Of a stretch of 64,000 nucleotides of DNA, positions 1-62,009 are shown piece after piece. The DNA is taken from assembly GCA_965206645.1 (NCBI GenBank), contig CBDBKE010000004.1, positions 384,001-448,000 of the forward strand, given 5' to 3'. Below the pieces are notes generated by a model. The model was not told the origin of the DNA. It made no database searches and saw nothing but the letters and a program-made list of their open reading frames with translations. The position numbers were made by a program, and so were the translations under genes. The number at the start of each line of letters is the position of its first letter. Position 1 is the first letter of the stretch. Source of the DNA: Terriglobia bacterium. GTDB lineage: Bacteria; Acidobacteriota; Terriglobia; JAJPHL01; JAPKYU01.

Positions 1-1430
1 ACTTCCGCCAGCGCCTGCTGCTCAAGCCGGTCTACGAGGTCGTCGGCCTTGACGCCTAGCCCCCTTCGGCCGGAGACCTCGACGTAAGGCCGCTTCTGCT
101 CTTCCGGCGATAGCTCAACGTCCAGCTCGCGGCAGCAGCGCGGTGACAAAGCGACCATCTCGTAGGCGAAGTGCACCGACCTGTCGGCGTGCTCGGTAAA
201 GCCCAGCGCCTTCAAGCCCTGTACCACGATGTTTTGCAGGTAGGACTGCCGCACGTCAATTACGTTGTAGACCACCTCAGCACGGCCGAACGGCGGAACC
301 CCATCCTGTGGCGGTGTGGCCGTGGTGACCCAGACCTGATGCCCGTCGGGATAGCGGTGGAGAGGCCGGTAATGAAAGTCGCGGTCCAGAAGGCCAAACT
401 TCCAGAGCTGATAGGCAATGTCCTTGCCGACGTAGGTCACCGTACCATTGGAGCGCATGATCACCTTGGCGTCGGCCGGGGAGCGCTCTGCGGCATCGGG
501 GTCTTCCACGGCGGCGCCGGTCGAGTCCACCGGCATGACCCAGCAGCCCCGGTTGCGGCCCTCGGTTTCGAGATGAATGGCGCCACGCTCTTTCAGCAGA
601 GCGAAGGCCTGGTCCCAAAATTTCAGCCGCAGGATTTCGCTCTCGCGAGGCAGCAGGTCATACTGAACATTCAGCCGGGACATCGTGGCTAGGTGAGCGT
701 GCACGATGTTCTCTGCGATGATGTCAGCCAGCTCTGCTGCCTCACCCTGCCCGTGTTCAATTTCCCGCAACGCCTGGCTGCGCAGCTCCAACCGCGCCGG
801 GTCCTCGTCATAGAGGCGAGAAACGCGCGCGTACAGGTCCCAGCAGTAATAGTCGAATCGCACCGCGGGATCGGCGAGCAGTTTCGTCAGGTCAGCGGTT
901 GTCTTCCGCTCCAGGTGCCGGAATCCGACGACCACGTCGGCGACCTGGACGCCCGTGTTGTCAATGTAGTTCTGCACTTCGACCGGGCGGCCGCGGCCGC
1001 GCAGAGTCCGCACCAGCGTGTCGCCCAGCGCGGCGTTGCGCAGGTGGCCGATGTGCGCGGCCTTGTTGGGGTTGATGTTGGTGTGCTCGACGACGATCTT
1101 CGCCTCGCCTGCCGCCGGCTCGTCCCGCTCGCCGCGCACCAGCCCTGCCAGATACGCCGACCGGTCGAAGAACACGTTGATGTAGCCGCCTCCGGCCGGT
1201 TCCAATCGCTCCACACCTTCGATCGCCGGCATCGCTTTCACCACCTCCTGGGCGATTTGCCGCGGCGGGCGCTTCAGCGTCTTGGCCAGCTCGAAGCAGA
1301 AGGGGAACGCCAGTTCACCGAATTCCGGCCGGCGTGGCTGTTCGACCAGCAGGGGCAGCGACACCTGGTAGCGGGCGCGAAGAAATTCCTGGAAGGCGCT
1401 CCGAATCCGTGTTTGCAGGCGCAAGTACAT
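1..1430 (-). CDS. argS: arginine--tRNA ligase (3' end runs off the window)
   Basis: Hand translation from ATG at 1430 (MYLRLQTRIR...) gives EHTNINPNKAAHIGHLRNA (HIGH motif) and VSGRRGLGVKADDL. It is missing from the ORF track because it has no stop in the window. Confidence 0.95.
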   Translation of the reverse strand, partial: MYLRLQTRIRSAFQEFLRARYQVSLPLLVEQPRRPEFGELAFPFCFELAKTLKRPPRQIAQEVVKAMPAIEGVERLEPAGGGYINVFFDRSAYLAGLVRGERDEPAAGEAKIVVEHTNINPNKAAHIGHLRNAALGDTLVRTLRGRGRPVEVQNYIDNTGVQVADVVVGFRHLERKTTADLTKLLADPAVRFDYYCWDLYARVSRLYDEDPARLELRSQALREIEHGQGEAAELADIIAENIVHAHLATMSRLNVQYDLLPRESEILRLKFWDQAFALLKERGAIHLETEGRNRGCWVMPVDSTGAAVEDPDAAERSPADAKVIMRSNGTVTYVGKDIAYQLWKFGLLDRDFHYRPLHRYPDGHQVWVTTATPPQDGVPPFGRAEVVYNVIDVRQSYLQNIVVQGLKALGFTEHADRSVHFAYEMVALSPRCCRELDVELSPEEQKRPYVEVSGRRGLGVKADDLVDRLEQQALAE

Positions 1431-50804: not shown

Positions 50805-51229
50805 TCAGTCCAACCGGGCTCCTTGGCGCCATTGCCAGGGCTTGATGAATTGTCCTTGCCAGATACCACGATTGTCTTTCCGGGCTTCATCTTCAGCGGC
50901 AACGTACCGTTTCGAGAAGCGCCGATAAGCAAGTGCTTGGCCTTGACGGACAAGCCATCCGTTCAAGTCCATGTCGTCCAGGTAGCAGACGGAAATCAAA
51001 CGGCCGTACTGGTCCCTCGTGTCACCCTTGCACGTGATGGACGCCTTGCCGATCTTTACACGCAGTGCCGAAGTCGCCTCCTTTCCGCAATCGTAGCGCT
51101 TCCCGTCACGCTTGCACGTCTGTCTTGATTCCGGCGCGTCAATCCCCTCCAGGCGCAACTTTTCACCGGCAATCTCCACGGTGTCGGCGTCGATGATGCG
51201 AGCCACGCCGGTCAGAGTTTCGGCACTGC
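50805..51229 (-). pseudogene. thermonuclease (SNase) whose 5' end is cut off by IS3
   Basis: IIDADT, LRLEGIDAPE..Q.C, DQYGRL, LVRQGQA and RGIWQG; no start codon before the IS. Confidence 0.85.
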
Positions 51230-52509
51230 TGACCTGCCTGGCGATTTCCGGACCAGCTGAAGCCTGAGAGAATGGCGCCCTCGGAGAAACGAGGGAGCCA
51301 TGAAGAAGACCCGGTTTACCGAAGAGCAGATGGTGACGATCCTCCGCGAGGCCGATCAGCGGCCCGTTCCGGAGGTGGCCAAAAAGAACGGCGTCAGCGC
51401 CCAGACGCTCTACGCCTGGCGGAAACACTTCGGCACGTTGGAGCCCGCCGATGTGAAGCGGCTGCGGCAGCTCGAGCAGGAGAACGGCCGGCTGAAAAAG
51501 ATGGTGGCCGATCGAGATCTGGAGATCGACGTGCTCAAGGAGATCACCCGAAAAAAATGGTAGGCGCACGCGTGCGCCGGCCGCAGGTCGCGTATGCACG
51601 TGCACGCGGTCTGTCGGGTCGCCGCGCGTGCGCCTTGCTCTCCGTCGCACGGTCCACGCTGGGCTACCAGTCGCGGCTGGTCGACCGGGATGCCCCGGCG
51701 CTGGCCGCGATGCGTCGTCTGGCGGCGCAGTATCCGCGGTACGGCTATCGCCGGATTCGGATTTTCCTAAAACGCGAAGGGCACACGATGAGCACGGACC
51801 GGACCCATCGCCTCTGGCGCCAGGCGGGGTTGCAGGTGCCTCGGCGGCGGCCGCGGCGCCGGGTCGCCCTGAGCCGGCCCCGCCCGGTGCCCGCCACTGC
51901 GGTCAATCACGTCTGGGCGTACGACTTCGTGTTCGACACCTGCGCGAATGGGCAGACGCTCAAGTGCCTCACCGTCGTCGACGAATGGACCCGCGAGTCA
52001 CTCGCGATCGACGTGGCCGGCGGCATTCGGTCCGGGCGCGTTATCGAGGTGCTCACGCAGCTCGTGAGCGTCCACGGAGCCCCACGTTACCTCCGGTCCG
52101 ACAACGGCCCCGAGTTTGTCGCGGGTGCGATTCTCCGGTGGCTGCTCCAGGCGCAGATCGAAACCGCGCTCATCGAGCCGGGGAAGCCGTGGCAGAATGC
52201 GACCGACGAATCGTTCAACGGGAAGTTCCGCGACGAGTATCTGAGCCTGCAGTGGTTTCGGAACCGCGTGGACGCGAAGGTGGGGATCGAGCAATGGCGA
52301 CGGCACTACAACGACGTGCGACCGCACTCGAGCCTTGGCTATCTGACGCCAGCCGAGTTCAAAGCGCAGCTCCGTGCTGGCTCGGATGACGGTGGGCGCT
52401 CGCCGGCGATGCCGGCTCACGCTGACCAAGAAGAACACGAGAGCGACTTAACCATGCCGACTGGCGCTGTTCTCCAGTAATCGGTGGTCCGAAGAAAGCC
52501 GGCAGGTCA
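51230..52509 (+). mobile_element. IS3-family element, 1280 bp
   Basis: IRs TGACCTGCC...GGACCA / TGGTCC...GGCAGGTCA; TG...CA ends. Confidence 0.93.
51300..52480 (+). CDS. IS3 transposase OrfAB (orfA 51300-51563; programmed -1 frameshift at the A7 run ~51551)
   Basis: MKKTRFTEEQ HTH; YGYRRI, WAYDF, SDNGPEF, PGKPWQN and ESFNGKFRDE. Confidence 0.93.
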
Positions 52510-52796: not shown

Positions 52797-55700
52797 TCAG
52801 TCGCTGAGCAAATACTGAGTCACCAACGCACGTGTGATGGCTTCACCGCGTCCGGAAAGCTTTCGAACGTTTTCTTCCGACATTGCGGAGAAGTCGGTCG
52901 GGTAATGGATCACTTCCTCACGATCCACCCAGTTGGCGGATTTCAGAGGTACACGACGATCGATCTGTCCGAGACCTGCGTAGACAAACCCGTCAAGTCG
53001 CCCGAATTTCGCGTGATCGTGAAGCCGCTGTTTGGTAGCGTCCTGGACTTTGCGCATGACTGCGGACATGACCTGGGTCATTCGTTTTGTCCAACTGATG
53101 GGCACCCCCTTGCCGGTGAATTGCCCGGCGCCGGCGTCGCTCGCGATGATGATGTCGGGGTTGTAACTGATTGCGCTTACCTCGAGATCTCGGCCAGGCT
53201 CCATCACACTCACGCCTAGATTCTCGAACACGCCCCCGTCGGTGACTATCACGCGGCATGTATCGGTTTGCCCGTTTCTCTCCAAAGACTTCGTCCAGTC
53301 GAACGGCGGAAGGAATGGCGGGTAGGCGGCCGTGGCCGTCACCGCGTCGGCGACCCGGAGTTCGCTCGCCGGTGCCCAGCCGTATCTCCAAGTGCCGAAG
53401 CGTTCGTTGCTCATACGGAATGCAGTGCCGGTTCGGAGCTCACAAGCGTTGAAGACGATCGCCTTGCCTTGGCGCGTGGGCGCATCGCAGTTCTGAGTGC
53501 CGACTACGCCAGCGATCGCGTCGGCAAGGACGTGTGTCCGCGAATAGCGATGTCGGAGTGGCCACGACCAGCGCGAGACGAGGTTGCTGGCACTGCGAAT
53601 CCCGGGAAAGAATGTGGAGACCAGATTTGCGATCCAGGTCATCAAGTCGGTGGCCAACGTTGGCAGAGCGACGACAGCAAAGTTCCACAGGAGCGAACCG
53701 AGGCGTGCGGGATGCAGGAGTTTTTTCAGCGCAGGTCTTACCAGACCGCGATGAAGGAATTTGACAGCGCTGTCATCGATTTCGGAGAACGCAGCTTCGG
53801 TATAGCCGACTAGGGCAGTCATGACCGAGCCGCCCGACACGCCGGATATCACATCGACCTCATCGAGTAACTTGAGGTCTTCGAGCGCACGCAATGTGCC
53901 AAGATGAAATGCGACGGCACGCGATCCGCCGCCGGATAGCGACAGCCCAATCTTCTTGTCGAGTGCCGCCACCGGAGGCGGAGTCGTAACACCGCCTCGT
54001 GCCCCGATTGTGATCTCCATTCCGTTTCGGTGCGCGGCCAATTCTCTCTTTTCGAACGCGTAAGCCCCAATTTGCGGCTTCTGTTCGGCGGCATGCCCGA
54101 CGATCACCATCAGCTGGAGGGCACCGTCGTCGGGTCCAGCCGCAAAAATGGTGGCGATGCCTTCGTAGTCCGTGGCGCTAGGCGTTGCTGGGCTGACCGG
54201 ATGGGAATGCCAGGTTCCGACGTAACGCACGATCCGGTGGGTGCGTTCTTCGTAGTCCTTGCACAGAGCTCTTGTGCCGTGGGTTCCGCAGCGGAAGAGC
54301 TCGGCGGAAAACGTGCTGTCCTGCGGCGGCCCACTGACGTTGGTCACCCATACGATTCCGAGGGTCTCGTCGAACTGTCCGAACAGTAGACCACCCGTTT
54401 CCTGTTCCGCGGATCGTTCTCGGGCCCCCGCGCGTATCCAGCCGATCATATCCCGCCAGACATTCGCCGACATCCGGAAGTCGAGCCCGTCCGCGACCCA
54501 CCGAATGTCCGGGCGAAACCTAAAACGCTGTTCACGAATATCGGGCGACTGGCAGATGAGAAAACCGCTGGCGATGTCACCAGCGTCGTCAAGCGCCTCG
54601 GCCAATGCATTGAGCGCCCGCGCCGAAAGGACGGCCACGTCGGCGTGCGATGCGACGAAGGTGGGATCGGAACATCCGGGTTCTGGCTGCCGGAGACCTT
54701 CGATAGCGTCAGACGTCCAGAAGGCCTTCGCCCACTCGCCGAGCCAGTCACGGTTCACGGCCGCAAGGCCTAGGCGGCGGAACATGTCGAGGGGTCCAGC
54801 TCGGTATCCGGACGGAGCGACGACTGCGACAGCGTGCTGCGCGGTGGCGCTGATCATCACCGAAGCGATTGGAATCTGCCGCTCGTGTTCCTTGAGTACC
54901 GCCTCAAGCTTGCTTCTAACACGGAGTGACGCGGTCGCATCGACCACGACGTCGATATCCGCGTCCCAATCGGTCCTGGTCAGGGTCTGGAAGACAATGT
55001 CCTCGATTCTCGCAAAAACTTTGACGTTTGGTGCGATCGATTGCACCCGACTGGCGAGTGCCGTGGCCTTTGGCTCGTTAGTGTCCGCAGCGGAAAAGTT
55101 CTGGCGAACCAGCACGCCCGGGGTTACGTGGTTTCGGTCGTAAAGCGTGAGTTCTGCGATTCCCGCTCGAGCGAGGTGCTCTGCAATGAGTGAGCCTATT
55201 GCTCCGCAGCCCCAAAGCGCCACCCGTTTTCCGCGAAACCAGTCCATCGCCGTGCCTTCGTCTCGCCGGGTTACGATCTCGGGACGGTTCTCAATCACAG
55301 AGCACCACCTTACACGTGCCTCGTTCCTCCATCTGATCAAGGTTTCGAAAACAGAGTTGATCAACGCTTGGAATTCTTCCGGGGTGTCTTCTCTCCTGTA
55401 GTGGTTGCTGAATTGGCAGGCGATCGAGGCTGCGCGCAGCTTGGCGACATCGTGCCCTTCGATTTCCCAAAATGTGAGGTGTTGGTGTCGTTGCGTGACG
55501 TCGCCGGCGACGCCTCGTGCAGGCGCACCGATCGCGACGTACAACGGGGCGCCCTTGGTGACACGCTCCGAGGCCAGCATCAGGTGAGCAAGCAGCCGAT
55601 AGCCCAGGGCACCTTTGCTTTCCAGGTGGTGGAGCAGGTGATGGACCATTCGGGGGTATTCGAACGGAAGCTCGAAGTTCAGCAAGACCGTGGGCGCGAA

Positions 55701-56297
55701 CAACACATCGTTCTGCAAATGTTGTACGGGCACCCACGCATTGACCTCAAGAAGGCCGGGCTTCGGCTGGTCGAGCACTGCGGCTCCGAACCATGGCCAA
55801 GTATCGCGGCCCGGCGTGTCGGCGTTCACACAGATCGATGTCAAGGCCACCGTATAGGCAACGGGCGGGTGCAAAGGACCTTCGGGATGGTCGAGTTCGT
55901 TGCGGGCTCCACGTCGAAACCACTCGTCGAGCTGCGCCAGGAATCCGAACATGCCTTGAGACGGGATCCACTGGGTGTCGAGGGATTGATACAGGCATAG
56001 GTGGCTTCCCCACTGAACGTGACCAAAGCCGTGGAATCGGGTGTGGGCAGTGTCGGCAGATGGCGGACTGAATGGGAAATCTGCCGGCACCCATAGCGTG
56101 ATGCCTTCGCGGTCGTGGAGCTGCAGACCGTCATCGACATGCTCGTGACGGGAGCAATCGAGCGTGATGTCGACGCCTAAAGAAGCACCCTGGTCGACGC
56201 TCTCTTCAACACCGATGATCTGAACCGGGGATCGATCGGTACCTGCTATGCGTCGCAGCTGGTCTAGCGCGGTCCGTTGGCCTTCACTAAGCGCCAC
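52797..56297 (-). CDS. E2-like + E1 (ThiF) + JAB + patatin phospholipase fusion, ~1166 aa
   Basis: E2: FPFSPP...HVQWGSHLCLY. E1: GCGAIGS, GVLVRQ, PEPGCSDPTF. JAB: ETGG...VGTWHSHP...PSATD. Patatin: LSGGGSRA, GVSGG, DGGVFEN. The GTG start at 56297 overlaps the MBL stop. Confidence 0.92.
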   Translation of the reverse strand: MALSEGQRTALDQLRRIAGTDRSPVQIIGVEESVDQGASLGVDITLDCSRHEHVDDGLQLHDREGITLWVPADFPFSPPSADTAHTRFHGFGHVQWGSHLCLYQSLDTQWIPSQGMFGFLAQLDEWFRRGARNELDHPEGPLHPPVAYTVALTSICVNADTPGRDTWPWFGAAVLDQPKPGLLEVNAWVPVQHLQNDVLFAPTVLLNFELPFEYPRMVHHLLHHLESKGALGYRLLAHLMLASERVTKGAPLYVAIGAPARGVAGDVTQRHQHLTFWEIEGHDVAKLRAASIACQFSNHYRREDTPEEFQALINSVFETLIRWRNEARVRWCSVIENRPEIVTRRDEGTAMDWFRGKRVALWGCGAIGSLIAEHLARAGIAELTLYDRNHVTPGVLVRQNFSAADTNEPKATALASRVQSIAPNVKVFARIEDIVFQTLTRTDWDADIDVVVDATASLRVRSKLEAVLKEHERQIPIASVMISATAQHAVAVVAPSGYRAGPLDMFRRLGLAAVNRDWLGEWAKAFWTSDAIEGLRQPEPGCSDPTFVASHADVAVLSARALNALAEALDDAGDIASGFLICQSPDIREQRFRFRPDIRWVADGLDFRMSANVWRDMIGWIRAGARERSAEQETGGLLFGQFDETLGIVWVTNVSGPPQDSTFSAELFRCGTHGTRALCKDYEERTHRIVRYVGTWHSHPVSPATPSATDYEGIATIFAAGPDDGALQLMVIVGHAAEQKPQIGAYAFEKRELAAHRNGMEITIGARGGVTTPPPVAALDKKIGLSLSGGGSRAVAFHLGTLRALEDLKLLDEVDVISGVSGGSVMTALVGYTEAAFSEIDDSAVKFLHRGLVRPALKKLLHPARLGSLLWNFAVVALPTLATDLMTWIANLVSTFFPGIRSASNLVSRWSWPLRHRYSRTHVLADAIAGVVGTQNCDAPTRQGKAIVFNACELRTGTAFRMSNERFGTWRYGWAPASELRVADAVTATAAYPPFLPPFDWTKSLERNGQTDTCRVIVTDGGVFENLGVSVMEPGRDLEVSAISYNPDIIIASDAGAGQFTGKGVPISWTKRMTQVMSAVMRKVQDATKQRLHDHAKFGRLDGFVYAGLGQIDRRVPLKSANWVDREEVIHYPTDFSAMSEENVRKLSGRGEAITRALVTQYLLSD

Positions 56298-57435
56298 GAC
56301 CGAATCCAACTGCCGTTGCAGGCGCGACGGCGGCGCCACTGGCAGCCTTCAGCGCGTCGCTCATCGACTTGCTGGATTCGCTCTTGCCGACATAGGCGAA
56401 CCCTGTCTCGCTGACCTCGAAGATGATTGGCTCGGGGTTCCTCTTGTCCGGATGTTCCTGGGTGCACATGAACTCGTTAGGGACGATGCGCTGATACTGT
56501 CGCTTCGCCTTGGCGTGTGGTGGATTATCACCTGGTTCGTTGCTCGCCGGCACAGGGTCCGAGCTCGAGACAACATATCCGGGATTGAGGGCAGCGTTGC
56601 CAATGTCACGCACGATGTCAGATTTCAGCGTCTCCTCGTCGCCGTCCTCGTCTTTCCAGTACATCACTGACTTCGAGCAATGATGGGGTGCGAGCAGGAC
56701 GTTCCAGGCCCGCTTTGCGGCTTTACTGCGGTCGAAGATTCGTCGGATGATCGGATAGCTAAGGTCTCCCATGAGCAGCGCTCGGCCGACGCCGGATTCG
56801 TTATAGAGGGAGATCTGGAAGGCAAGGCTACAATCGTTCCGGTCGCCGAAGCTGTCGTCCTTGAACGGGGCGTGCACAAACGCCTCAAATGCATTGGGGA
56901 CGTCCTCACCGTCCAAAGTTGTGATGGTTTGGCCCGGAATGGACAGGAATTCTTTGGGAAAGCCTTTGAAATCGGGCTCCTTGAGCAGGTCGTCGTAGCC
57001 GATGATGCGAATTCGACGGCCTCGTCCGGGATCGCCGCCAGCGTCTATGCCCACCTTAACACGTCGCATCGCCTCGTCGTGGAAGGCTTGCGCGTCTTCG
57101 CAGAGGTCGTTGTTCTCGCGGAATTCGCGGAACGTGCGCGGCGACATCCAGAGCTCGGAGATGATCACGCGGTCGTTCAGCTCCTCAAAGCCCTGGCAGT
57201 GGTCCAGATCGGGATGCGTGAGCGCGAATACCGACAGATACGGCTTGCCGCGAAGTTTCGGCAGAACCTTGATCAACTCGTCGATTACCGGCCAAGCTGG
57301 GTCGTCGTCCTCTTCGGACTTGGCCATGTGCCGCATGTCGACCTGTAGGTACACCGTCTCGGACACGCGAACGGTCGTGCTGTCGCCAGTGCCGACCGGC
57401 CAGAAGATGAAGCCTCGGGCAGGAGAGTAGATCAT
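56287..57435 (-). CDS. ComEC/Rec2-type metallo-beta-lactamase-fold hydrolase (putative nuclease)
   Basis: FWPVGTGDS, LTHPDLDHCQG, NDCSL, LMGDL and APHHCS; low-complexity tail ending VGFGRGA; AAGGGG RBS. Confidence 0.9.
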   Translation of the reverse strand: MIYSPARGFIFWPVGTGDSTTVRVSETVYLQVDMRHMAKSEEDDDPAWPVIDELIKVLPKLRGKPYLSVFALTHPDLDHCQGFEELNDRVIISELWMSPRTFREFRENNDLCEDAQAFHDEAMRRVKVGIDAGGDPGRGRRIRIIGYDDLLKEPDFKGFPKEFLSIPGQTITTLDGEDVPNAFEAFVHAPFKDDSFGDRNDCSLAFQISLYNESGVGRALLMGDLSYPIIRRIFDRSKAAKRAWNVLLAPHHCSKSVMYWKDEDGDEETLKSDIVRDIGNAALNPGYVVSSSDPVPASNEPGDNPPHAKAKRQYQRIVPNEFMCTQEHPDKRNPEPIIFEVSETGFAYVGKSESSKSMSDALKAASGAAVAPATAVGFGRGA

Positions 57436-57626
57436 ATTGAGCAACCCCTTATGCTATACTAGCACATGTTGGGGTCGGTTGGAAGTGCGAGGGTTTCAGT
57501 ACATGCGAGGTGAGCTCTGGGGAAATAACCGGCTCACCGTCAAAAAGCTCAGCCTTGAGCGGCCGCCGTTCTGACCTGCATGTCTCGACGTGACGAGTGC
57601 TGCGACGGGGCGAATAGGCACTTGCG

Positions 57627-58154: not shown

Positions 58155-58867
58155 GTGGTATCGGAAGATTTTGGTGTTGCTGCATCAGGAAGGCTGGCCG
58201 GTGGGCAAGTCTCTGGTGAGGCGATTGTATCGGGAAGAAGGACTGACGCTGCGACGGATGGTGCCAATGAAACGCCGGGTGGCAGTGGAACGAACAGAGA
58301 GAATTAAACCCAGCGGACTGAACCAGGTGTGGAGTCTGGACTTTCTGGCGGAGCAGTTGGCCGATGGCAGGTGATTCCGAGCATTGACGGTGGTGGATGT
58401 ATTCGCGCGGGAAAGCCTAGCGGTCGAGCCGAGACAGAGTCTGATAGGGGGAGACGTGGTCCGAGTGCTGCAGCGGATTCAGAAAGACCGTGGGGCGCCG
58501 AAGGCGCTGTTCTGCGACAATGGATTGGAGTTCACGAGCCAGGTGATGGACTTCTGGGCGTACCGGAACGGAGTGAAGATCGACTTTTCACGCCCGGGAA
58601 AGCCGACCGACAACGGGCACATTGAGTCGTTCAACGGAACGTTCCGGGACGAGTGTCTGAACACACATTGGTTCCCGACGCTCGGGGATGCCAGGGAGAT
58701 CATCGCAGCATGGCGAAGGGAGTACAATGAGAGTCGTCCTCACAGGGCCCTGAGGGAGAAGAGGCCGTACGAATTTGCTCATCAAATCGCGGCTCGCCGC
58801 GATTTGATGGGTTCGAAAAAACCGCAATACTCACCTTGAAGTTGGTACGAAATCTCGGGACCCCTCA
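58155..58867 (+). mobile_element. IS3-family remnant (truncated orfB with an internal TGA at 58372)
   Basis: YRKI...RLYREEGL, WSLDF, DGR*FRALTVVD, DNGLEF and ESFNGTFRDE; right end ...GGGACCCCTCA. Confidence 0.85.
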
Positions 58868-59054: not shown

Positions 59055-59173
59055 GGTGTTGTCAAGTTGAGGCTGACGGGTGTTTCTGATGCCCAGCATG
59101 GCGCGTTCAAGACGGGCTGGAGCCCAGTATCCTGGGGGTCGATCGACTAGCTTTTCGTCAACTTGACAATGCC
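59055..59173. mobile_element. 119-bp MITE-like element with IS6-like IRs
   Basis: GGTGTTGTCAAGTTGA ... TCAACTTGACAATGCC (14/16 inverted match); no transposase inside. Confidence 0.7.
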
Positions 59174-59854
59174 GGCGACGGCGTTCTCGTTTAGAGGGAC
59201 GGCGTGCTGCATGAGGCTCTCGAAATATCGCATCGAGAACTGGACCTGGGTCGGCCAGAGGACACGCTGGCGGGCGTCCTGCGGGGTCCAAAGCTCCAAG
59301 CCCTCAATGACTGTTCCCTTGATGGTGACGGACCGGCCGTCTTTGCTGGCACCGAGGCGGAAATCCGCGGCGGCCAGCCGGTTGAGCTGTTCTTTGACGG
59401 TCTTGATGGTGCGCCCGCCCACGTCGAGGCCGAGGGTGCGCTTCACGAAAGCCGTGAGGCTGTCTTCGAGCTCAATGTTGGGCGATTGCGTGCGCAGGGC
59501 CTCGGCGTTCAGGTGGTAGAGGACAAGCCGGGGTTTCGGCCCGAAGGGCAGGCCCACGTCCACGAAATCCTCGGTTGTCGGATCGAGGAGACGACCGGCC
59601 TGAAGCTCCAGCCGGACCATGCCGTTCTTGCGCTGCCATAGCCGCACGGCTTCGCCGGGGTCGCGGTAAGGCATGCAGGTCTGGCACAGGACGGAATGCT
59701 GGTAGAGGATCGATTGGGCTTCCTCGTCCTGGAGAGGCATCGAAATGAGCCGTTCATGAATCCGGGAAAGCGGTTTGTGCTCGGGCTTGATGATGGCGGG
59801 AAAAAGGTCGCCGATGCGCTGCATCCCTTTTGCGGTTTTGTCGTCTATCGGCAC
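59147..59854 (-). pseudogene. repA: plasmid replication initiator RepA (IncW/RepA_C-like), C-terminally truncated by the MITE
   Basis: HSVLCQTCMPYRDP, GLPFGPKPRL and HAVPL; the frame runs into the MITE IR right after HAVPLNENAVA. Confidence 0.8.
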
Positions 59855-59890: not shown

Positions 59891-60145
59891 CTAATTAGCC
59901 GCCGTTTTTCTTCCCTGCTGCTTTTCCCATGAGTCCACGGCCCGCTTGAGGAGCTGGATGTTTTTGAGCTGTGCGTCGAGTGCGAGGCGCTTGAATTTTT
60001 GCCTGAATTCTGGAGGCACCTTGAAATTGAGATCGACGAGCGTTTCCTTGGTGCTCTGCCCCCGCTGGAGTGAACCCGATACCGCAGTGGGGCTCCCTTT
60101 GGTTGCGAGCAAGGTACCGGCGTTGATCGCTGATGGTTTAGGCAT
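59891..60145 (-). CDS. small ribbon-helix-helix partition protein (ParG-like)
   Basis: LNFKVPPEFRQKFKRLA...LLKRA; coupled downstream of parA. Confidence 0.75.
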   Translation of the reverse strand: MPKPSAINAGTLLATKGSPTAVSGSLQRGQSTKETLVDLNFKVPPEFRQKFKRLALDAQLKNIQLLKRAVDSWEKQQGRKTAAN

Positions 60146-60824
60146 GTACTTTGACTCTCTTCTGGGTATTCGCTAATTCGCTATTGTTCGCTAATTCGCC
60201 TATGCGTTTCTTGGTGAACCGCCAGAGTTCGGCGATTTCCGCGGCGGCGGGGCTGCTTGGATTGATCTCTGGGGCGGTGCGGCCATCGGTCATCGAGGAG
60301 GCATAGTCCACCCGGTCATGCACGACGGATTGGAACACCTGCCCGTGCTGGGAAAGCGCCGCGATGGTCTGGACGGTGATCCGGGCGTTGGCCTTGGCCT
60401 GGGTCAGCACAAAGGCGAAAGGCGTCTCTGATTCCTTGACCAGGTCAAGCGTAGCCCCCAGGGACCAGAGGTCGTTGGGGCTCGGGCGTGTCGGGATCAG
60501 CACCAGGTCGGCGCGCTTGAGCACTTGCCGGTTCTGTTCGGTGAGCGCGGGCGGCGTGTCGATAAAGCAGGAGGCGAAGCCCGCCTCAGCCAAGGTCTGG
60601 AGCTTTTCAGGAAGTTCGCGGAGGTTGACGGGCGCAAGCTTGGGGCTTTCTGCTTCGCGGAGGTTCCACCAGGTGGCCAGTGTTTGTTGGGGATCGGTAT
60701 CAATGAGCACGGCGGGACCGTTCTTGGCGTGCTCTGCGGCCACGGCCAGGTGCGCCGCGAGGGTGGTCTTGCCGCTGCCTCCCTTCTGGGACGTGATCAC
60801 GACTATTTTCATTGGCATCGCCAT
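60138..60824 (-). CDS. parA: type Ib ParA ATPase
   Basis: QKGGSGKTT, IDTDPQ, IDTPP and PTRPSPNDL. Confidence 0.93.
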   Translation of the reverse strand: MAMPMKIVVITSQKGGSGKTTLAAHLAVAAEHAKNGPAVLIDTDPQQTLATWWNLREAESPKLAPVNLRELPEKLQTLAEAGFASCFIDTPPALTEQNRQVLKRADLVLIPTRPSPNDLWSLGATLDLVKESETPFAFVLTQAKANARITVQTIAALSQHGQVFQSVVHDRVDYASSMTDGRTAPEINPSSPAAAEIAELWRFTKKRIGELANNSELANTQKRVKVHA

Positions 60825-61163: not shown

Positions 61164-62009
61164 ATGCTACAAACACGCATTAAAAACCGGCTGATTCGGC
61201 GCGGCATTGTCGCCTTGGCGCTGCTGGCTACGCTGCCCGGCATACCGGTCGCGGCGGGGCAGACATTTGACGAAGCTGTGGCAGCGTATGGCCGTGGCGA
61301 CTATGCCACAGCGGTGCGAGGGTTCCTCGTTCACGCTGAGCAGGGCGACGCCAGTGCCCAGTTCAACCTCGGGGTCATGTACGCCAACGGGCGGGGCGTT
61401 CTCAAGGACGAGGCCGAAGCTGTGCGCTGGTACCGGCTGGCCGCCGAGCAGGGCGACGCCGATGCCCAGTTCAGCCTCGGGGTCATGTACGCCAACGGGC
61501 GGGGCGTTCTCAAGGACGAGGCCGAAGCTGTGCGCTGGTACCGGCTGGCCGCCGAGCAGGGTCACGCCGGTGCCCAATACAACCTCGGGGTCCGGTACGC
61601 CAACGGGCTGGGCGTTCTCAAGGACGAGGCCGAAGCTGTGCGCTGGTACCGGGTGGCCGCCGAGCAGGGTCACGCCAGTGCCCAATACAACCTCGGGGTC
61701 CGGTACGCCAACGGGCGGGGCGTTCTCAAGGACGAGGCCGAAGCTGTGCGCTGGTACCGGCTGGCCGCCGAGCAGGGTCACGCCGGTGCCCAATACAACC
61801 TCGGTCTCATGCACGCCAAGGGCGAGGGCGTCCTCAAGGATTCCGTGCTCGCGCACATGTGGTCCAACATCGCTGGCGCAAACGGGAACGAAGCCGCCCG
61901 GGAGTTGCGGGACAGTCTTGAACGTGACATGACCCGCGCCGAGGTCAGCCGAGCGACTGAACTAGCGCGGGTCTGTATGACCTCGGACTATCAGGACTGC
62001 GAGCCGTAA
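61164..62009 (+). CDS. secreted Sel1-like repeat protein
   Basis: Signal peptide; 36-aa units AQ(F/Y)NLGVxYANGRGVLKDEAEAVRWYRLAAEQG. Confidence 0.95.
   Translation: MLQTRIKNRLIRRGIVALALLATLPGIPVAAGQTFDEAVAAYGRGDYATAVRGFLVHAEQGDASAQFNLGVMYANGRGVLKDEAEAVRWYRLAAEQGDADAQFSLGVMYANGRGVLKDEAEAVRWYRLAAEQGHAGAQYNLGVRYANGLGVLKDEAEAVRWYRVAAEQGHASAQYNLGVRYANGRGVLKDEAEAVRWYRLAAEQGHAGAQYNLGLMHAKGEGVLKDSVLAHMWSNIAGANGNEAARELRDSLERDMTRAEVSRATELARVCMTSDYQDCEP
61338..61845 (+). repeat. near-identical 108-bp tandem repeat (4 full units plus a partial)
   Basis: GAGCAGGG anchors at 61338, 61446, 61554, 61662 and 61770. Confidence 0.93.

Follow-up and report, generated by a model that had tools for sequence, protein, structure and literature searches.

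The MBL-fold enzyme encoded in a 64,000-nucleotide stretch of Terriglobia DNA (the window) ends in a flexible tail with a conserved aromatic-Gly motif which, judged from comparative sequence data, is most likely a handle for attaching the enzyme to other molecules via the neighbouring ligase/protease. Both proteins of the pair scored above the NCBIfam curated equivalog cut-offs for the 6A-MBL anti-phage system, the MBL with 293.6 bits against NF058524 ('6A-MBL_enzyme'; cut-off 220; residues 14–348 covered) and the ligase with 360.2 bits against NF058523 ('6A-MBL_cap2_3'; cut-off 320; residues 72–746 covered). The NF058524 model ends at residue 348 and is therefore silent on the tail. The window pair is an ordinary 6A-MBL member, to which the present analysis adds useful detail.

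The 6A-MBL locus and its partner ligase

The name 6A-MBL reportedly goes back to van den Berg et al. 2024 (Cell Host Microbe). The operon type corresponds to row 6a of Iyer, Burroughs & Aravind 2006 (PMC1779556), and secondary mentions refer to 6A-MBL as an anti-phage system. The literature covered on 6A-MBL consisted of such secondary mentions and lay outside the primary van den Berg 2024 paper, so that some details may have been described before; within it we found no description of the tail motif, the extension or the patatin fusion. PADLOC 2.0 comes without a 6A-MBL model.

As in other 6A-MBL systems, a specialised MBL is followed by an E2-E1-JAB triple-module protein on mobile DNA, and the gene unit moves between phyla. 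In the window the MBL and cap2_3 genes are adjacent and co-oriented on the minus strand, with the MBL gene first and an 11-nt overlap (Table 1). An intact E2-E1-JAB gene directly followed the MBL gene in 72 of 80 genome loci, the remaining eight representing contig ends, frameshifts or IS insertions. The operon of these 72 loci comprised two or three genes, and no Ubl gene was among them. Likewise, the Pfam matches contained no nucleotidyltransferase, and the upstream protein adopts an MBL fold and is not a CD-NTase.

Table 1 Features of the 6A-MBL pair, in window coordinates
Feature	Position	Strand	Details
6A-MBL system MBL-fold enzyme, 382 aa	56287..57435	minus	ATG at 57435, NF058524
Flexible tail, residues 353–382	56290..56379	minus	pLDDT <50
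Handle Gly377-Phe378-Gly379	56299..56307	minus	conserved aromatic-Gly; Gly379 proposed as reactive C-terminus once trimmed
Extension Arg380-Gly381-Ala382, proposed pro-peptide	56290..56298	minus	codons CGT GGC contain the GTG of the next gene
cap2_3-patatin fusion gene (E2-E1-JAB-patatin)	52797..56297	minus	GTG 56297, 1166 aa; alternative GTG 56339, 1180 aa
E2-like domain, residues 46–175 (1180-aa reading)	55815..56204	minus	PF14457, 68.9 bits
E1 adenylation core, residues 369–502	54834..55235	minus	PF00899, 75.4 bits
JAB/JAMM metallopeptidase domain, residues 640–748	54096..54422	minus	PF14464, 38.8 bits
Patatin-like phospholipase domain and C-terminal region, residues 799–1180	52800..53945	minus	PF01734, 70.1 bits, cut-off 27.7

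The ligase matched the Pfam families Prok-E2_A, ThiF, Prok-JAB and Patatin, the PADLOC E1-E2 model PDLC00857 with an E-value of 4.8e-77, and PADLOC JAB models with E-values down to 8.6e-21. We identified the E2 catalytic Cys115 together with His99/His107, as well as the E1 crossover-loop Cys556 (PEPGCS) at about 54672–54674, located beyond the adenylation core. Invariant residues in an alignment of 40 ligase sequences, with identity down to 30%, were H99, H107 and C115 of the E2, G377, G379, G382, D401, R412, Q413, K424 and C556 of the E1, and E647, H711, H713, S721 and D724 of the JAB domain. The ligase thus retains the full set of catalytic residues required to adenylate a substrate, pass it through two thioester stages and carry out cleavage of the JAMM type.

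The window ligase differs from the E2-E1-JAB arrangement of the 6A-MBL system by its C-terminal patatin phospholipase, a fused form that is common and was found in 46 of the 80 loci and in all 120 best ligase matches. The patatin motifs GGGSR (Gly-rich oxyanion), GVSGG (GxSxG serine) and TDGG (DGG aspartate) were present in the translation as well as in the alignment consensus. A lack of patatin could be rejected for most of the 26 unfused loci, as 18 encode it as a separate adjacent downstream gene, and three more showed weaker matches elsewhere in the locus. Fused or adjacent, patatin accompanied 64 of the 72 intact loci, and one relative carried a calcineurin-like phosphoesterase in its place. 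A single fusion event was likewise rejected, because the MBL tree (a quick IQ-TREE run on 80 rows, i.e. 79 loci and the window, with one frameshifted locus omitted and the last 35 residues removed) demands at least four changes between the fused and the unfused state, so that the fused forms do not make up a single clade. This swapping of the third part between fused patatin, separate patatin and phosphoesterase marks it as an exchangeable effector. A patatin phospholipase (CapV) is also a frequent companion of type II CBASS.

The MBL-fold enzyme and its conserved tail

The MBL open reading frame spans 56287..57444 when read from a TTG start, and its translation ends in ...GKSESSKSMSDALKAASGAAVAPATAVGFGRGA in front of the TAG stop (56287..56289). 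The ATG at 57435 is preceded by AAGGGG, and identical database proteins are also called at 382 aa; this ATG is likely the true start, the in-frame upstream TTG at 57444 being less likely. A metal-binding motif is formed by H74-P-D76-L-D78-H79 together with D224 and H251/H252, and D33, H74, D78, H79, D224, H251 and H252 were invariant in a 51-sequence alignment. As Pfam (no family at E 0.01), PADLOC (only weak PDC-M48B/LmuA matches) and a PDB sequence search (nothing meaningful, best E 0.43) were uninformative for the MBL, its fold was set by the structure model with Foldseek and by NCBIfam. The AlphaFold model (pLDDT 90.2) is an alpha-beta/beta-alpha MBL sandwich whose top PDB matches are all MBL-fold, the closest being the ComEC beta-lactamase-like domain 9ic4 (E 5.2e-12, TM(target) 0.72); a beta-grasp fold was not seen in the model or in its best PDB matches. 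The enzyme shares with 9ic4 a metal motif of the HxDxDH type rather than HxHxDH, so that the model describes a ComEC-like fold with a matching metal-motif set, for which nuclease activity is predicted. In contrast, sequence identity is only 16%, and ComEC, a membrane protein for DNA uptake, has neither a conjugation tail nor a partner ligase.

Tail residues 353–382 are disordered in the model (pLDDT <50) and project from the confident MBL fold. They comprise a docking stretch (353–366), an Ala/Pro linker (367–374), the handle AVGFG (375–379) and the extension RGA (380–382), so that the ending AVGFG-RGA given in the preliminary description is borne out by the translation. Its wording of a low-complexity linker does not suit residues 353–366 (ESSKSMSDALKAAS), which are conserved to about the same degree as the tail linker, contain a short helix predicted by AlphaFold at 358–363 and form part of a predicted E2 interface (see below).

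The handle was strongly conserved among homologues, on which the preliminary description had made its proposal depend. GFG was found in 117 of the 120 close homologues among the matches listed, the three exceptions having frameshifted or truncated ends, and was 100% conserved in the 117 aligned sequences. The average top-residue frequency per column in these 117 was 0.84 for the body, 0.72 for the linker, 0.97 for AVGFG and 0.70 for the extension. At larger distance, G379 was at least 90% conserved in a hand-picked alignment of 51 rows with identity down to 27%. Using the broader pattern [FYHW][GA], we detected the motif within the last 12 residues of 64 of 71 full-length 50%-cluster representatives (355–460 aa; taken from 150 matches listed, after 79 fragments or longer forms had been dropped), with 32 of the 71 carrying it at the exact C-terminus. 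Inside the same proteins this dipeptide has a frequency of 1.25%, and the motif occurs in 13% of internal 12-mers. Of the 80 genome loci, 79 carried x[FYW]G among the final 10 residues, followed by 0 (11 loci), 1 (7), 2 (25), 3 (15), 4 (20) or 6 (1) further residues. Conservation of the tail is, on these alignments, evidently more than chance. Some family members end in ...TGRFA, ...GGRYA or ...DKGFA, and an aromatic residue precedes every terminal Ala in the family.

The overlap of the tail with the next start codon, also noted previously, could be confirmed: the GTG start of the ligase, which is conserved across relatives, occupies 56295..56297 within the Arg380/Gly381 codons. The alternative GTG at 56339 would extend the overlap to 53 nt and is disfavoured: database calls for most homologues give 1166 aa, 14 residues fewer, the conserved ligase N-terminus GQxxALxQL starts at residue 20 when counted in the 1180-aa form, and the conserved start codon within the overlap sits at 56297. 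In 16 loci of the clade the residue after GFG changes between R, H, C, S and N, with the ATG/GTG of the downstream frame staying in place. The extension measured four residues in 112 and three in five of the 120 close homologues listed; in the window, a TAG stands in place of the last codon found in the nearest relatives, leaving an extension that is one residue shorter. The amino acids that follow GFG in relatives show no conservation at the protein level, and the last of them is usually E, Q, K, H or D, which points to Gly as the mature end. Since the ligase gene starts inside the extension, its residues seem to be dictated by the overlapped start codon and not by a protease site. At the sequence level, the overlapped start codon fully explains the pattern of the extension, in which we found no positive sign of a JAB recognition site. 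Furthermore, the 11 of 79 loci without any extension imply that trimming is not a universal step.

Predicted docking of the MBL on the E2 domain

We modelled the E2-E1 part of the ligase (residues 15–615) with the MBL (residues 1–379) as a 1:1 complex, though the enzyme is expected to be dimeric. The complex reached a score of 0.78, compared with 0.00 for the best of three controls; 58 of 80 solved complexes and 2 of 110 mismatched pairs attained the score mark, counts that are only approximate here because own alignments were used. The runs shared at least 91% of the contacts, and the pLDDT of the partners was at least 84. The model thereby supports binding of the MBL to the E2-E1 part of the ligase. 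The predicted MBL-binding surface on the ligase lies within residues 27–138 of the E2 domain and faces the MBL body together with tail residues 353–366 and 374. E2 residues 97–101 and 112, near Cys115, lie beside the MBL body. For an earlier suggestion that the tail be modelled in the E1 site the outcome is divided: binding of the MBL as such is supported, whereas its residues 367–379 (the last ~13) have no confident position, so that the confident interface is with the E2 domain and not with the E1 site. The solved complex of like kind is Cap2-cGAS, whose partner has a fold unrelated to MBL.

Proposed maturation and conjugation of the MBL

We consider it probable that the MBL is a pro-form trimmed to Gly379 and subsequently ligated to an acceptor via E1 and E2, with JAB reversing the reaction. 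The extension RGA would be removed, most likely by the JAB of the neighbouring protein, exposing Gly379 at the end of a disordered tail of ~27 residues. Gly379 would then be adenylated by the E1 and handed to Cys556 and further to Cys115 of the E2, which may ligate the whole MBL enzyme to an acceptor in the way known for Cap2 and the cGAS/CD-NTases of type II CBASS. The JAB domain would also undo the conjugation. The MBL may be held on the E2 domain by the conserved helix 308–317 and the tail-proximal residues 353–366, and the extension would be present mainly through translational coupling, the ligase gene beginning within it. Trimming, adenylation and transfer, as well as the target and the effect on nuclease and phospholipase, are steps that we infer. 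That the MBL itself serves as modifier, the core of the preliminary description, is not a new idea, and published work already assumes it from the parallel with Cap2/cGAS; it is well supported by comparison, through the conserved handle, the intact partner residues and the predicted binding.

The closest known parallel is provided by type II CBASS Cap2/Cap3 (Ledvina et al. 2023; Jenson et al. 2023), which likewise combines an E2-E1 fusion, a JAB and an enzyme substrate with a disordered tail. The catalytic cysteines are nearly co-positioned, with C115/C556 in the window ligase and C109/C548 in E. cloacae Cap2. [quoted passage not shown] In contrast to type II CBASS, the locus lacks a CD-NTase as well as any known nucleotide signal, the proposed substrate has a ComEC-like MBL fold, and the JAB is fused to the ligase. 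Moreover, 68 of 79 MBL loci carry 1–6 residues past the reactive Gly, whereas the CBASS cGAS logos are described as having a conserved C-terminus. This feature is reminiscent of the pro-forms of Ubl proteins (ubiquitin, Atg8/LC3, bacterial BilA/BubA), in which a few variable residues trail a conserved Gly and have to be removed by a dedicated peptidase ahead of activation by E1. Unlike these, the 'modifier' here would be a 40-kDa metallo-enzyme and not a beta-grasp protein, with an extension shaped by the overlapping start codon.

Rather improbable, in our estimate, is that the Gly is reactive and the extension is a by-product of the overlap, lost to a housekeeping carboxypeptidase or other peptidase or non-specifically, with JAB acting in deconjugation only. 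This would fit extension residues that follow the overlapped start codon and no protein motif, as well as the 11 of 79 loci that need no trimming yet still encode a JAB, and deconjugation is the role documented for Cap3 in CBASS. The same sister JAB, however, cleaves cGAS-GFP fusions exactly at the cGAS C-terminus (10.1101/2022.03.31.486616), so that a JAB of this clade can remove peptide-linked C-terminal extensions and the required activity exists. In addition, the JAB is fused to the very E1 needing the trimmed product, and in the related bacterial Bil/Bub systems pre-proteins are processed by JAB, according to PMC11601596. Trimming by the neighbouring JAB thus remains our preferred reading. 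The question of whether Gly or the terminal Ala is the reactive end, both having been offered in the preliminary description, is answered in favour of the Gly of GFG, since the C-terminal residue of relatives after GFG is E, Q, K, H or D, and many family members have the aromatic-Gly as their very end. Untrimmed use of Ala382, a usable ...GA end having arisen when the fourth residue of the extension was lost, could draw on the aromatic-Ala ends of some family members and of E. cloacae CdnD and on the window copy, which has one residue fewer than its nearest relatives and a Gly-Ala end. Ala382 is preceded by Gly, though, whereas the terminal Ala of the family always follows an aromatic residue; the RGA end occurs in only 2 of the 120 close homologues listed, 112 of which carry four residues, mostly ending in E, Q or K; and the conserved element is GFG and not the terminal Ala. 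We therefore regard this use of Ala382 as scarcely credible.

The model contacts bear on two further explanations. Confident contacts are made by the MBL body and tail residues 353–366 on the E2, and do not involve a tail tip lodged in the E1, as would be expected if the tail were a non-covalent docking or regulatory peptide that tethers the MBL to the ligase or fills an active site, with nothing ligated through it. Such a peptide leaves unexplained why the family has an invariant Gly/Ala at, or 0–6 residues from, the end and why the partner retains an invariant ATP site and both catalytic cysteines, and the sister CBASS system uses a like end covalently; we judge it unlikely. The position of the MBL body beside the E2 active site (97–101 and 112 near Cys115) is also where an acceptor would sit, and the MBL could then receive a modifier encoded elsewhere instead of being the donor. 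This is very unlikely given that 72 of 80 loci contain two or three genes and no Ubl gene and that the system travels between phyla as a two- or three-gene unit, and the terminal Gly would be left unexplained. Our favoured reading accordingly keeps the MBL as the donor.

As to the acceptor, the targets of conjugation in the sister CBASS system are described in print as unknown. The trimmed MBL might be ligated via Gly379 to a membrane lipid amine, as a bacterial counterpart of Atg8 lipidation, although we give this only an outside chance. Behind this idea stand, taken together, an aromatic-Gly terminus, a ligase resembling Atg7/Atg3/Atg10 and the near-obligatory patatin phospholipase, which hint at it. 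The aromatic-Gly ending resembles the ends of Atg8/Atg12 that are handled by Atg7. If lipidation were true, a ComEC-like nuclease would be anchored at the membrane, with a phospholipase acting on the same lipids to release, activate or kill.

Taken together, the comparative data lead to precise and cheap predictions for the chemistry of a named defence system. The mature enzyme is predicted to end at Gly379, having lost three residues, and to dock on the E2 domain through helix 308–317 and tail 353–366. Because Lys363 is the last Lys/Arg before the handle, trypsin would leave a predicted 16-residue remnant (AASGAAVAPATAVGFG) on targets. Most MBL members would be made as pro-forms, unlike the CBASS cyclases and nearer to the precursors of ubiquitin and Atg8, and the family may represent a neat case in which a gene overlap creates the need for proteolytic maturation.

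The MBL protein and its C-terminal tail

The minus-strand ORF 56287..57444 encodes a protein terminating in ...GKSESSKSMSDALKAASGAAVAPATAVGFGRGA*. The MBL-fold protein (MBL) likely starts at the ATG at 57435, which is preceded by AAGGGG, and from there comprises 382 residues, equal to the called length of identical database entries. A Pfam search at E 0.01 returned no match for MBL and a PDB search by sequence found no relative. NCBIfam models identified MBL as '6A-MBL_enzyme' (NF058524; 293.6 bits, cut-off 220) and the E2-E1-JAB-patatin fusion encoded directly after it, cap2_3, as '6A-MBL_cap2_3' (NF058523; 360.2 bits, cut-off 320). Within this named system the locus is an ordinary case, in the common fused-patatin form; 6A-MBL is cited as a Pseudomonas aeruginosa phage defence, jumbo phage included (PMC13276650; 10.1101/2025.09.30.679545; PMC13700489).

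In the AlphaFold model of MBL, built from a 51-row alignment, residues 1–352 were confident (pLDDT 90.2) and residues 353–382 disordered (pLDDT below 50). The top structural match in the PDB was the ComEC beta-lactamase-like domain (9ic4; E 5.2e-12, TM 0.72 for the target), with other MBL-fold phosphodiesterases and RNase J ranking next, and the metal ligands H74, D78, H79, D224, H251 and H252 were invariant in the same alignment.

Translation bears out the tail given in the preliminary description, GFG followed by RGA, and aligning the C-termini of MBL homologues showed that this proposed ubiquitin-style conjugation handle is conserved. GFG plus three to four residues terminates 117 of the 120 close homologues (best 120 of 2938 matches, 72–100% identity), with four residues in 112 and three in 5; the remaining 3 C-termini are frameshifted or truncated. 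Within the alignment of the 117, GFG is 100% conserved, and the mean column conservation was 0.97 for AVGFG, 0.84 for the body, 0.72 for the Ala/Pro linker and 0.70 for the extension, the residues beyond GFG. For the distant set we took one representative per 50% cluster (E ≤ 1e-3) and, from the best 150 of 617 matches, kept 71 of 355–460 residues, leaving out 79 fragments or longer forms. The motif [FYHW][GA] lay within the last 12 residues of 64 of these 71 and formed the exact C-terminus of 32, compared with a dipeptide frequency of 1.25% and an occurrence in 13% of internal 12-mers within the same proteins; the endings include GFG, TYG, GHG, RHG, EYG, RYA, GFA and RFA. Across 80 genome loci from many phyla, x[FYW]G was present in the last 10 residues of MBL in 79, the exception (L024) being frameshifted, and the extension in these 79 measured 0 (11 loci), 1 (7), 2 (25), 3 (15), 4 (20) or 6 (1) residues. 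As judged from the sequences, what the family retains is an aromatic residue with Gly, at times Ala, directly after it, placed at the C-terminus or a few residues short of it, where a disordered tail ends.

Gene junction and genomic setting

For cap2_3 we take the GTG at 56297..56295 as the most likely true start, since the called length of most homologues is 14 residues below that of the downstream ORF and the conserved N-terminus GQxxALxQL comes directly after this codon. The proposed overlap of the tail with the next start codon thus holds, this GTG lying inside the Arg380/Gly381 codons. The residue after GFG in the window's clade is R, H, C or S, with Y or N in some members, because the cap2_3 start codon spans extension codons +1/+2: CGT GGC, TGT GGC and AGT GGC each contain GTG, and CAT GGC contains ATG. 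In two clade members that terminate exactly at GFG, start and stop codons overlap (GGA TGA), and a 4-nt ATGA/GTGA overlap is the usual junction in more distant loci. These patterns argue that the extension is mostly a result of translational coupling and that its amino acids are not under selection for recognition. The window has a TAG in place of the nearest relatives' fourth extension codon, shortening the extension to RGA, which fits a dispensable peptide.

Features of the MBL/cap2_3 operon and its flanks
Feature	Residues	Window position	Strand	Remark
GFG	377-379	56299..56307	-	382-aa MBL numbering
RGA	380-382	56290..56298	-	382-aa MBL numbering
MBL stop TAG		56287..56289	-	
Downstream ORF (cap2_3)		52797..56339	-	1180 aa counted from first GTG
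Prok-E2_A	cap2_3 46-175		-	Pfam
ThiF	cap2_3 369-502		-	Pfam
Prok-JAB	cap2_3 640-748		-	Pfam
Patatin	cap2_3 799-1044		-	Pfam
Full IS3-family transposase (HTH_21 + rve + rve_3)		51272-52480	+	flanks operon
Truncated rve/rve_3 fragment		58384-58839	+	flanks operon
Plasmid-type RepA_C gene		59147-59854	-	just upstream of operon
ParA/MinD-type ATPase gene		60138-60824	-	just upstream of operon

The operon lies between IS3-family transposase genes and next to RepA and ParA genes, in a stretch that is mobile and plasmid-like. The flanking IS3-family genes suggest that it was carried on, or rearranged by, insertion sequences. The identical database proteins are located on a 2.2-Mb contig, and the RepA_C/ParA surroundings may represent an integrated plasmid or a chromid-size replicon. 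MBLs of 50–80% identity among the 80 loci occur in Alphaproteobacteria, Gammaproteobacteria, Acidobacteriota, Cyanobacteria, Dadabacteria, Chloroflexota, Gemmatimonadota, Actinomycetes, Spirochaetia and a Peribacteria (CPR) MAG, a spread that points to frequent horizontal transfer.

Two further genes lie in the vicinity. A secreted-looking protein (61164-62009, +) contains five near-identical Sel1 repeats (PF08238, E 4e-56), highly alike as protein, and the ORF at 50805-51650 (-), which overlaps the IS3 transposase ORF at its start on the opposite strand, encodes 281 aa with a staphylococcal-nuclease (SNase) domain at the C-terminus.

The cap2_3 partner and its predicted complex with MBL

Over 40 cap2_3 sequences, with identity down to 30%, the catalytic residues were invariant: His99, His107 and Cys115 of the E2, the GxGxxG motif (G377/G379/G382), D401, R412, Q413 and K424 of the E1, the crossover-loop Cys556 in PEPGCS, and the JAMM residues E647, H711, H713, S721 and D724. 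An intact E2-E1-JAB gene lies directly 3' of MBL in 72 of the 80 loci, the other 8 being short contigs or affected by a frameshift, a truncation or an IS insertion; the operon includes no Ubl gene. At one acidobacteriotal locus (L059, 7100-11000) one or two insertions interrupt the ligase gene; they carry ORFs of 511 and 552 aa on the minus strand, and E1 and JAB-patatin pieces lie to either side.

The patatin is fused to cap2_3 in 46 of the 80 loci, as in the window. Among the 26 unfused loci, 18 have a close relative of this patatin as a separate gene immediately downstream, and another 3 show weaker patatin matches elsewhere in the locus. In a Syntrophorhabdus MAG (L020, 2315-5788; MBL tail ...VGFGENR), a calcineurin-like metallophosphoesterase (PF00149) is fused to E2-E1-JAB in place of the patatin, and at least four changes between the fused and unfused states are required on the MBL tree. 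The phospholipase is therefore a regular, exchangeable third component, and most simply the effector.

We folded E2-E1 residues 15–615 (40-row alignment) together with MBL cut at Gly379 (51-row alignment). The complex model scored 0.78, compared with 0.00 for the best of three controls. Of solved complexes, 58 of 80 came up to the score mark, as did 2 of 110 mismatched pairs; both counts are rough because the alignments were user-made. Runs shared at least 91% of contacts, with a partner pLDDT of at least 84, and the model supports predicted binding of MBL to E2-E1. On the ligase side the confidently predicted interface comprises E2-domain residues 27–138, including 97–101 around the invariant His99 and 112 near Cys115, and on the MBL side helices 272–286 and 312–321 and tail residues 353–366 and 374. 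Helix 312–321 adjoins the invariant P305, P306, A310 and Y314. The last 13 residues of the cut MBL received no position in the model, which thus speaks neither for nor against their entry into the E1 site.

Proposed course of MBL conjugation

An aromatic-small C-terminal ending is common to the MBL family and the cGAS/CD-NTases of type II CBASS, and C115 and C556 of cap2_3 nearly coincide in position with C109 and C548 of E. cloacae Cap2 as described for that system (10.1101/2022.03.31.486616). The same source reports the cGAS C-terminal end adenylated in the Cap2 E1 site, loss of defence with V. cholerae cGAS G436E, a ...KTGRFA C-terminus for E. cloacae CdnD and cutting of cGAS-GFP fusions by Cap3 at the cGAS end (10.1101/2022.03.31.486616). 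Sequence conservation and this analogy together make a conjugation handle in the MBL tail a well-supported reading; its central idea, MBL as a conjugated enzyme, is current opinion and not new.

We infer every chemical step. Most likely, RGA would be cut off MBL, probably by the fused JAB, Gly379 would then be adenylated, and MBL would be passed via Cys556 and Cys115 and ligated to an acceptor, a link that JAB would also undo. The main alternative is removal of the extension by something other than JAB. Beyond the preferred course of JAB trimming and ligation, the present analysis adds a family-wide definition of the MBL handle, an explanation of the extension by the start codon of the downstream gene and a testable predicted docking surface of MBL on the ligase, and it suggests that most members of the MBL family would be pro-forms.
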